A DNA stretch of 64,000 bases, taken from the NCBI RefSeq assembly GCF_044647545.1, contig NZ_CP172818.1; one strand, given 5' to 3'. Below, one piece after another: positions 52,154 through 55,737 of the stretch (position 1 is its first letter; every line of letters begins with the position of its first letter). The translations under genes were made by a program, and so were the position numbers. This DNA comes from Escherichia coli (GTDB lineage: Bacteria > Pseudomonadota > Gammaproteobacteria > Enterobacterales > Enterobacteriaceae). Under the pieces are notes generated by a model that saw only the letters and a program-made list of their open reading frames with translations, was not told the DNA's origin and did not search any database.

Positions 52154-52155
52154 AC

Positions 52156-52434
52156 TTACTGCTGTGAGGCCTGCTGAAACAGGTGTTCCCACATATCGGT
52201 TACCAGCGCCTGGTCACGCGGTGACAATTCACCCGCGCCAATGGCTTTTTCCAGACTCTGGCTAACGGTCGTATGTACCGCCTGGGCGGAGTGGTCCTCA
52301 CCACTTTCCAGTTCTGCGATGGCTAATGTCAGGTGGCCACGCAAATACCCACTGGCAAACAACTCATCATCACTGGCATGGTCAACCATACCGTCGATTA
52401 ATGCCAGAATGCGTGATTCAAACTCCGCGATCAT
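52156..52434 (-). CDS. yfcL: Small conserved protein YfcL
   Basis: 92-aa ORF, last gene of the aroC operon. Confidence 0.85.
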
Positions 52435-52467
52435 CTTCTTTCCTCATTGTAAAACGTGGCGCTGGCT

Positions 52468-53016
52468 TTAGTTGAGCGCTTCCGGCCACGGGAACTGTTC
52501 CGCCGTAAGTTCCGGCGTGTGATAATAATTTTGTAATGCTTTAATGAAGCGTGCCGGACGTTCGGGAATGCCGTTTGCCAGATAATCCATCACCTGCGCA
52601 TGTACCCGCCGTTGAAACACCACACGATCCGGTTCGAAATCCCCTTCCAGATTGTCGCAGCTAACATTAAACGGATATCCCGCCGCCACGCAGAACAACC
52701 AGTCCAGCGCCTGCGGCTTCACTTCAACATCTTCAAACTGACTTTGCGTCTGGGCATCGCGTCCGTCCGGGCAATACCAGTAACCGAAATCAACCAGCTC
52801 ACGGCGCGCTTTCCCGGCAATACACCAGTGCGAAATCTCGTGGATGGCGCTGGCATAAAAGCCATGAGCAAAGACGATTCGGTTATACGGTACTTCCGCA
52901 TCAGCAGGAAGATAGATCGGTTCGTCGTCGCCTTTAATCAGACGGGTATTAAAATCATCGGCAAAGCAGCTATTAAAAATTTCAATCAACTGCTCATAGT
53001 GGTGTGTACTGTTCAT
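52468..53016 (-). CDS. epmC: Elongation factor P hydroxylase
   Basis: 182-aa ORF; stop overlaps yfcA start. Confidence 0.88.
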   Translation of the reverse strand: MNSTHHYEQLIEIFNSCFADDFNTRLIKGDDEPIYLPADAEVPYNRIVFAHGFYASAIHEISHWCIAGKARRELVDFGYWYCPDGRDAQTQSQFEDVEVKPQALDWLFCVAAGYPFNVSCDNLEGDFEPDRVVFQRRVHAQVMDYLANGIPERPARFIKALQNYYHTPELTAEQFPWPEALN

Positions 53017-53824
53017 TAGTTCATCCCCAACCAGTGGAGGATCTCCTGTCCATGGCTATCGTAAAGTAATTTGGCACTCATCACCGCCGAGACGATAACG
53101 ATCATCGGGCGGATCAGCTTTTGTCCTTTGCTCAACACCAGTCTTGACCCCATGCGCGCGCCGAGGAACTGTCCTACCAACATCACAAATCCTGTCGCCC
53201 AAATCACTTTGCCGCCGAGAATAAACAGCAGCAAACCACCGATGTTTGACGTTGCGTTGAGTAATTTGGCGTGGGCCGTGGCTTTGGCGAGGTTGAATCC
53301 GCACAGCGTAACAAAGGCCAGCGCGTAAAACGACCCAGCAGCCGGGCCAAAGAATCCATCGTAAAAACCGACGCAGCCCCCCGCCACCAGCGCAAATGGC
53401 AGTCCATACATCCGGCGCTGGCGATCTTCTTCTCCCAGTTTTGGCATCAGCAAAAAATAGAGGCCGATACAAATCACCAGGATCGGTAAAATCTGCCGTA
53501 AGACATCGGCCTGAACATACTGCACCAACAGCGCGCCGCTCATTGAGCCGACAAAGGTCATGGCGATATTGAGTTTCTGATCGCTTAAGCTAACCACTTT
53601 GCGCCGAATAAAGTAGATAGTGGCGGAAATAGAGCCGCCGCAGGCTTGCAGTTTATTAGTTGCCAGCGCGTTAGCCGGAGACATCCCCGCCGCCATCAAT
53701 GCCGGAATGGTGAGTAACCCACCGCCACCGGCAATCGAGTCGATCAATCCCGCCAGCATGGCGACAAAAAGAGAACTCCCAGCAACAGCGGGGAAACCAT
53801 AAACAGGCTATTAAACGTTTCCAT
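53016..53824 (-). pseudogene. yfcA: TauE/SafE-family membrane protein YfcA, disrupted by -1 frameshift
   Basis: ATG at 53824 overlaps the mepA stop (TAATG) and encodes [19 protein letters not shown], then hits a stop; the long ORF 53016..53759 (MLAG...) is in the -1 frame; the switch is at the T5 run (plus-strand A5, 53766..53770). Confidence 0.7.
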
Positions 53825-54648
53825 TAGATCACGTGCTCATCCAGTAGCGCCTGGCAGGAAGGCGGCAACGGAGGCGGTGTCTTCTTCTCAGGCTTTGTTG
53901 TTCCCGGTTTTGGTGGTTCAAACCAGCTTTGCAGTTCTGCCCCGCAACCATCGCCTGGTGGCGGTAAAGGTTGATCTTCACACTCCAGACTATCGGCAGG
54001 ACAACGTAATCGTACATGCATATGCGCGCGATGCTGGAACCAGGGTCGCACTTTACGTAACCAGTCGCGATCGGTGCCCGCATCAAGGCAAAGTTGTTGT
54101 TTAATCGCCGGATTAACAAAAATGCGCGTGACGTCTTTGTCCTGGGCGGCGAGTTTGATCAAGCTGAAAATTTCTGGCTTCCACAGCGCGGGGACAACGT
54201 GTTTACCGTCGCGGGATACTAAGTCCAGTGCTTGCGGGCGCAAGAGCTGCGCGGAGGTCCAGCGTGTTTTTGGCAGTTGCAGGAAGATATCGACATCCAG
54301 TCCGGTCTGGTGGCTGGCGTGACCGCCGTTGAAACGACCACCAGCAGGCATCCCCATATCGCCAATCAGCACCGTACCCATGCCCAGATTGCTCACCTGG
54401 CGACTCAGACGCTGGATAAACATCACCAGATCCGGATGTCCGAAATAGCGACGCTGATCGGTACGCATGACCTGATAATGTTCGGACTGTATCGGCAACG
54501 TGTCAGCACCGACGATACAGCCATTAGAAAAACTGCCTATCGATTGTGCGCTACCCGGCACAGGTTGGGTTATTTTTTGCCACGGCGTCGCTGCCAGGCT
54601 GGCGCTACTGGCAAGCAGAGCCAGCAGCGCAATCGCGGTTTTGTTCAT
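53824..54648 (-). CDS. mepA: Penicillin-insensitive murein DD-endopeptidase
   Basis: 274 aa; signal peptide; metallopeptidase His motif ([11 protein letters not shown]). Confidence 0.93.
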
Positions 54649-54651
54649 TTT

Positions 54652-55737
54652 TTACCAGCGTGGAATATCAGTCTTCACATCGGCATTTTGCGCCCGTTGC
54701 CGTAACAGGTGATCCATTAAAACGATCGCCAGCATCGCTTCCGCGATCGGCACCGCGCGGATCCCAACACAAGGATCGTGACGGCCTTTGGTGATCATCT
54801 CAACTTCTTCGCCAAAGCGGTTAATGGTGCGCCCCGGCACGGTAATACTGGAGGTTGGCTTCAGCGCCATATGGGCAATGATTTGCTGCCCGCTGCTGAT
54901 ACCGCCAAGAATGCCGCCCGCATGGTTGCTCTGGAAACCGTCTTTGGTGATTTCGTCGCGGTTCTGGCTGCCACGCAGCGCTACCACGTCAAAACCATCA
55001 CCAATTTCTACGCCTTTCACCGCGTTGATGCTCATCAGCGCATGGGCGATGTCGGCATCCAGGCGGTCAAAGACCGGCTCGCCAAGTCCGGCGGGGACGC
55101 CACTGGCAACAACGGTGACTTTCGCGCCGATGGAGTCGCCCTCTTTTTTCAGCGCGCGCATCAGTTCATCTAACGCGTCGATTTTGTCCGGGTCCGGGCA
55201 GAAAAACGGATTTTGCTCGACCTGCGACCAGTCTTTGATTTCCAGCGGAATGTCACCCATCTGGGTCAGGCAGCCGCGAATCTCAATGCCAAATTTCTCG
55301 GCGAGATATTTTTTGGCAATCGCCCCTGCCGCCACGCGCATGGCGGTTTCGCGGGCGGAAGAGCGCCCGCCGCCGCGATAATCACGCAGGCCGTATTTTT
55401 GTTCATAGGTGTAATCGGCATGACCTGGACGGAAAACGTCCTTAATCGCACTATAATCCTGAGAACGCTGGTCGGTATTTTCGATCAACAAACCGATGCT
55501 GGTGCCGGTAGTAACACCTTCAAAAACACCGGAGAGAATTTTGACCTGATCCGGCTCGCGGCGCTGGGTGGTATAGCGCGATGTCCCAGGGCGACGACGG
55601 TCGAGGTCATGTTGCAGGTCCGCTTCCGTCAGCGGAATGCCTGGCGGAACACCATCGACGATGCAGCCGAGCGCCAGCCCGTGCGATTCGCCGAAGGTGG
55701 TTACGCGAAAGAGTTGTCCAATTGTGTTTCCAGCCAT
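54652..55737 (-). CDS. aroC: Chorismate synthase
   Basis: Start taken at [20 protein letters not shown] (361 aa) within ORF 54652..55740. Confidence 0.95.

Follow-up and report, generated by a model that had tools for sequence, protein, structure and literature searches.

A one-base loss in a T run that splits yfcA in an ST648-clade Escherichia coli sequence is probably a long-read homopolymer miscall

In the stretch of Escherichia coli DNA analysed here (64,000 nucleotides, referred to below as the window), the coding sequence of yfcA is split by a run of five T residues (T5) at a place where reference genomes have six (T6). Our results suggest that this T5 is probably a site-specific long-read homopolymer miscall, which is the best supported explanation because T5 tracks long-read-only assemblies and not phylogeny. 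The miscall would have arisen in a long-read assembly, probably one that was nanopore-only or incompletely polished, and the actual yfcA of the organism would then be an ordinary intact gene for a 269-aa protein whose translation is coupled to that of mepA via a TAATG overlap. A one-base error in homopolymer length is a classic nanopore indel error (PMC11466455). The features of the locus are as follows.

53016..53824, minus strand: yfcA locus, a frameshifted CDS for a putative transporter of the TSUP/TauE family (PF01925, NF007909).
53766..53770, minus strand: T5 run on the coding strand, A5 on the plus strand; T6 in references (MG1655 alignment).
53744..53824, minus strand: 26-codon ORF that begins at the native start and runs to the TGA at 53746-53744 (ORF list, translation).
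53016..53759, minus strand: 247-codon ORF (MLAG...), whose start is Met23 of the native protein (ORF list).
53822..53826, minus strand: TAATG, in which the mepA stop overlaps the yfcA start; translational coupling (sequence, RefSeq coordinates).
53745..53747, minus strand: yfcA codon 27, TTG (Leu), versus TTT (Phe) in ST648 and K-12 genomes (alignments).
53824..54648, minus strand: mepA, penicillin-insensitive murein endopeptidase, intact (Pfam PF03411, 313 bits).
52468..53016, minus strand: epmC, EF-P hydroxylase, intact, its start overlapping the yfcA stop (Pfam PF04315, 272 bits).

The minus strand across the mepA/yfcA junction and the T run reads GTGATCTAATGGAAACG. The TAA stop of mepA lies at 53826-53824 and the ATG of yfcA at 53824-53822, an overlap of one base, and the RefSeq annotation (mepA 693-1517, yfcA 1517-2326) likewise has one base common to both genes. 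A preliminary description of this DNA had placed the true yfcA start at 53824, coupled to the mepA stop, and both the sequence and the RefSeq coordinates bear this out. Short overlaps between a start and a stop are able to support translational coupling. No Shine-Dalgarno site precedes the native yfcA ATG, which presumably depends on coupling to mepA. Read from this ATG, the frame stops after 26 codons and the 247-codon TauE/TSUP ORF then follows in the other frame. Pairwise alignment with MG1655 places a single-base gap in yfcA, T5 in the window versus T6, and the addition of one T to the run yields one 269-aa protein, so that the earlier claim of a gene split by one base lost in a T run is upheld, along with the positions, peptides and arithmetic given for it.

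The 247-aa ORF scores 161 bits against the Pfam TauE model PF01925 (cut-off 32.6) and 499 bits against the NCBIfam equivalog model NF007909, for which the restored protein scores 526 bits (cut-off 383). The former covers positions 20-266 of the 266 in NF007909 and the restored 269-aa protein positions 1-266; as encoded, no single yfcA ORF of the window spans the full model. The gene also occupies the conserved position, between mepA and epmC with its start overlapping the mepA stop, and the mepA protein of the window has exact copies on at least 1000 contigs in the protein collection. The protein has its strongest hydropathy peak centred at residues 12-29, and codons 20-21 are where the frame is lost. 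Most of the first hydrophobic helix (TMH1) would therefore be missing from a product initiated at Met23, much as the preliminary description had proposed for the first transmembrane helix of the 247-aa product. In a co-evolution model, YfcA has a UppP-like fold in which TMH1 and TMH5 are 'broken' helices (PMC4602095). As regards function, the literature turned up just this predicted fold and operon membership, and a sequence search found no solved structure related to YfcA.

The window is assigned by its sequence to the ST648 clade (phylogroup F) of E. coli. Positions 52200-55340 are 99.9% identical to 60 complete ST648-clade genomes, including strains ST648, IMT16316 and MS6198, while the longer segment of 12.7-57.4 kb is 99.98% identical to IMT16316, MS6198 and FDAARGOS_497. 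Alignment shows T6 in all three of these genomes and in CP008697, and none of the 60 clade genomes is among the exact T5 matches. Relative to IMT16316, MS6198 and FDAARGOS_497, there are three differences private to the window within 12.7-57.4 kb, namely a 6-bp deletion at 52154, a T>G change at 53745 and the T6>T5 change itself; the remaining 247 codons of yfcA carry no other change relative to the ST648 allele. The restored 269-aa protein is found exactly on seven contigs, all with T6; six of these (L005-L010) were inspected individually and each encodes the protein from a T6 run. On the other hand, a search of 15 billion proteins places the exact 247-aa ORF of the window on one contig alone, of 4,499,902 bp. 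The absence of T5 from the clade implies that it is either very recent or not real. One record in this set has oddities of its own: CP008697 (strain ST648) carries four private intergenic indels in homopolymers or tandem repeats, at positions equivalent to 13554, 13772, 15477 and 21027 of the window. These were rejected as changes in the window as other ST648 genomes lack them too, and the CP008697 record probably has errors or private changes at these places.

The strongest evidence on the cause of T5 comes from its recurrence elsewhere. We searched 5425 complete E. coli genomes for exact matches to a 95-nt query containing T5 and the common TTT at codon 27, and found it in at least 44. All 44 carriers are recent accessions (CP127xxx-CP196xxx, CM142xxx, CM181xxx). 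In an evenly spaced sample of all matches, roughly 40-45% of records were comparably recent by our own sorting of accession numbers, and against this baseline the recency of all 44 is far from chance. The carriers clump by project: 4 belong to a Perm project, 9 to a UID/UCPROB series, 6 to a Taiwanese CP183xxx series, 4 to a bovine EC series and 4 to an A1/B1 series, with further groups of three each labelled UT*, CRE and BS/HS, as well as ECKH and the laboratory strain C600. Their chromosomes range from 4.49 to 5.62 Mb, a spread which shows that they are not one clone. T5 thus appears to follow sequencing project and technology and not phylogeny.

Where the methods or the type of contig allow a judgement, the T5 carriers are long-read assemblies. 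One announcement (PMC10652846) describes Ch1, C51, APEC20/16 and APEC37 as sequenced with ONT R10.4.1 and processed with Guppy hac, Flye and medaka, with no Illumina data; T5 is present in 4 of the 5 strains of this Perm announcement. UCPROB-002 was likewise produced from ONT data with medaka (PMC13223998). Other contigs carrying a 247-aa ORF are megabase-scale or have Flye-style names, and one is an NCTC record. Several carriers have additional broken housekeeping genes: aroC and mepA are also broken in L028, and mnmC is split in L022 and L030. In the K-12 C600 assembly (CM181231), yfcA has T5 and folC is also called 'frameshifted', while MG1655 has T6. In E. coli, folC is an essential gene. 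PGAP annotates the T5 copies of yfcA as frameshifted pseudogenes; a comparison with reference copies had been proposed as a check, and in it the references had T6, so that the refuting condition named at the outset, references with T5 and an annotated 247-aa product, did not apply. The change in the window has the attributes of a miscall: it alters nothing but the length of a homopolymer, by one base, is missing from the closest relatives and recurs in unrelated strains by project and technology. We infer that the assembly behind the window was made with this class of technology and that its T5 arose in the same way as those of the other carriers.

The effect is specific to this site. A simulated T5 at the T6 run of aroC, which shares the context CTCTTTTTT with yfcA, was found in 0 of 4186 genomes, and a simulated T5 at the T6 run of mepA in 0 of 5425. 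In Ch1, 488 and UTAK-15, yfcA is the sole frameshifted CDS in 40 kb. Five T5-bearing assemblies were checked at those of their other A6/T6 runs that could be matched, and these are of full length. That the control runs are unaffected shows a site-specific effect, and generic homopolymer noise was rejected as the whole story since neither control run has a T5 and the neighbouring runs are of full length.

The window itself is uneven in quality. Within 12.7-57.4 kb, all 191 runs of 5 or more bases agree with the three ST648 genomes, including the other 50 runs of 6 or more bases, which indicates that the assembly is not generally poor at homopolymers. All differences private to the window lie within 52-64 kb, with none in 1-52 kb. 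The 6-bp deletion at 52154 is beside a REP element and exactly at an intergenic difference between A-type and ST648-type sequences. Further along, 57421-59674 is a yfcO-yfcR segment of phylogroup A type, where ST648 genomes have a different, 4.3-kb arrangement. Within it, 57843-58977 contains about 10 private indels of 1-3 nt, mostly deletions, and about 11 mismatches, often adjacent to one another; no complete E. coli genome matches this part at >98.2%. More private differences follow at 60695 (G>C), 61996 (A>C, which creates a C10 run) and 63949 (CC>C). These data suggest that 52-64 kb may be a locally poor, possibly chimeric long-read consensus, and a noisy patch just 4 kb from the T run raises the prior that T5 is an error. 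The preliminary description had stated that every other housekeeping ORF in the window is intact; this holds for the housekeeping ORFs, but the fimbrial genes yfcO, yfcP and yfcQ (57.8-59.0 kb) are split by the small private indels. In the ST648 clade, a two-gene insert lies between smrB and the fimbrial operon and encodes a 452-aa ATPase of AAA_15/AAA_21 type and a 219-aa protein (NZ_CP008697.1, 9488-11489 of the extract); the pair is possibly a small defence module, and it is absent from the window between 57421 and 59674.

Three readings of the split gene had been offered at the outset, a real lesion, a strain marker or a homopolymer miscall. The strain marker fails, as all 60 ST648-clade genomes and every contig with the restored protein have T6, and the miscall is the best supported of the three. 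It is unlikely, though deserving of serious consideration, that T5 is real and that a very recent replication-slippage deletion in the T6 run inactivated yfcA in one strain. In that event, which we likewise regard as improbable, the cell would make a 26-aa peptide and at best a poorly expressed 247-aa fragment without most of TMH1. Several observations count against a miscall and for a real deletion. The run disagrees with every relative, although 191 homopolymers in the rest of the 44.7 kb show no discrepancy. F27L is another private change in yfcA, 21 nt from the T run, and the pair could reflect two genuine mutations of the gene. Lesions of yfcA that look genuine are present in a Logan contig (L025) and in two ST648 genomes (AP022161 and CM143886), and the gene appears to be dispensable. 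The otherwise unchanged 247 codons would also fit a very young lesion. However, the identical T5 tracks project and technology and not ancestry, it is present in a laboratory K-12 assembly that also 'breaks' folC, no member of the clade has it, and the private anomalies of the window all cluster in the same 52-64 kb as the nearby noise patch. These points lead us to favour the miscall. A phase-variable homopolymer locus is not supported either, as exact T5 is limited to recent, project-clumped deposits and the tract is just 6 nt in length.

The change at codon 27 deserves separate mention. Relative to the three ST648 references, the private T>G at 53745 converts codon 27 of yfcA from TTT (Phe) to TTG (Leu), and the same substitution gives rise to a GATC site and to the TGA that ends the 26-aa ORF. 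With it, the upstream frame closes at codon 27, adjoining the internal AUG, and no longer at codon 43. TTG at codon 27 is nevertheless found with an intact T6 in a Logan contig (L009), and across contigs L005-L010 Leu27 of the ST648-type allele is encoded by three different codons (CTT, TTA and TTG) in near-identical backgrounds. Parallel selection for F27L was rejected as an explanation because control variants are similarly detectable, so that deep sampling suffices. Nine other Phe-to-Leu variants of this allele served as a baseline, and the protein collection contains seven of them: six occur on 1-6 contigs, the seventh is a common natural allele with 564 contigs, and the other two are absent.

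If T5 were real and the T>G not coincidental, the new TGA might permit termination-reinitiation that rescues a truncated YfcA, and the T6 run might be a recurrent natural slippage hot spot that switches yfcA off; we consider this a long shot. At least as improbable, and in our view slightly more so, is the related proposal that the split gene is still expressed as it stands, through a -1 slip on C UUU UUG or through re-initiation at Met23 after the TGA, with T>G as a compensatory change. The TGA at 53746-53744 begins 10 nt beyond the final base of the Met23 AUG. In support of such expression, T>G brings the upstream-frame stop in from codon 43 to a place beside this AUG, and the general ability of start-stop overlaps to support coupling would apply here. 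Against it, C UUU UUG is not a canonical X XXY YYZ heptamer, and the downstream fold is unremarkable (z = -1.6), its hairpin starting directly after the site and containing the AUG. The existence of TTG together with T6 in L009 means that the change need not be compensatory, the shifted arrangement is conserved in no relative, and the product would still lack NF007909 positions 1-19. The preliminary description had also raised the question of whether the truncated ORF has its own ribosome-binding site. It does not: the lone Shine-Dalgarno-like site, UGGGAGU, is 15 nt upstream of the Met23 AUG, which is the wrong spacing, and a fold computation places this AUG inside a small hairpin, so that an own site for the 247-aa ORF was rejected and expression of the split gene is disfavoured further. 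Programmed -1 frameshifting is rejected: the canonical heptamer is lacking, as is a stimulatory structure 5-9 nt downstream, and the relatives have a single frame.

The consequences concern the databases more than the organism. Biologically, the window contains at most a young pseudogene of an uncharacterised, apparently dispensable putative transporter. If the miscall is the correct explanation, 'frameshifted yfcA' would be a cheap marker of unpolished long-read assemblies, and surveys of pan-genomes or pseudogenes should not score it as a lost gene; at least 44 RefSeq E. coli genomes labelled 'complete' have this T5. The carriers with readable methods, from two projects, are nanopore-only, and yfcA T5 would be a site-specific systematic error worth flagging to curators.

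The window allele can be set beside several known copies of yfcA. The K-12 protein (WP_000447361.1, 269 aa, PF01925, NF007909) has the same TAATG start overlap as the window, and over the 95 nt around the run the two sequences are identical except for run length and codon 27; K-12 has T6, one frame and Phe27, whereas the window has T5, a split into 26 and 247 codons and Leu27. The copies that PGAP calls 'frameshifted' (among them CP127316 of Ch1, CM181231 of C600 and CP172817 of HS-01) share with the window the same one-base loss and the same 247-aa ORF, but they differ from it in phylogroup and in codon 27, which is TTT in them and TTG in the window, a member of the ST648 clade. Other copies carry different lesions. 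In the ST648 clade, yfcA is annotated as frameshifted in NZ_AP022161.1, by deletion of a G in GAGCGGCG equivalent to window position 53536, and in NZ_CM143886.1, by a G6>G5 change equivalent to 53377-53382; among the 60 clade genomes listed, these are the only two with a match one base shorter over the 3.1 kb compared, and in each the deletion is in yfcA. The Logan contig L025 (ERR1023200, positions 1425-1515) has a 10-bp deletion, GTTCTCTTTT, over the same T run, which leaves the same 247-aa ORF as in the window; its size, and the fact that homopolymer length is not what changed, make a base-calling artefact unlikely and a natural lesion of yfcA probable.
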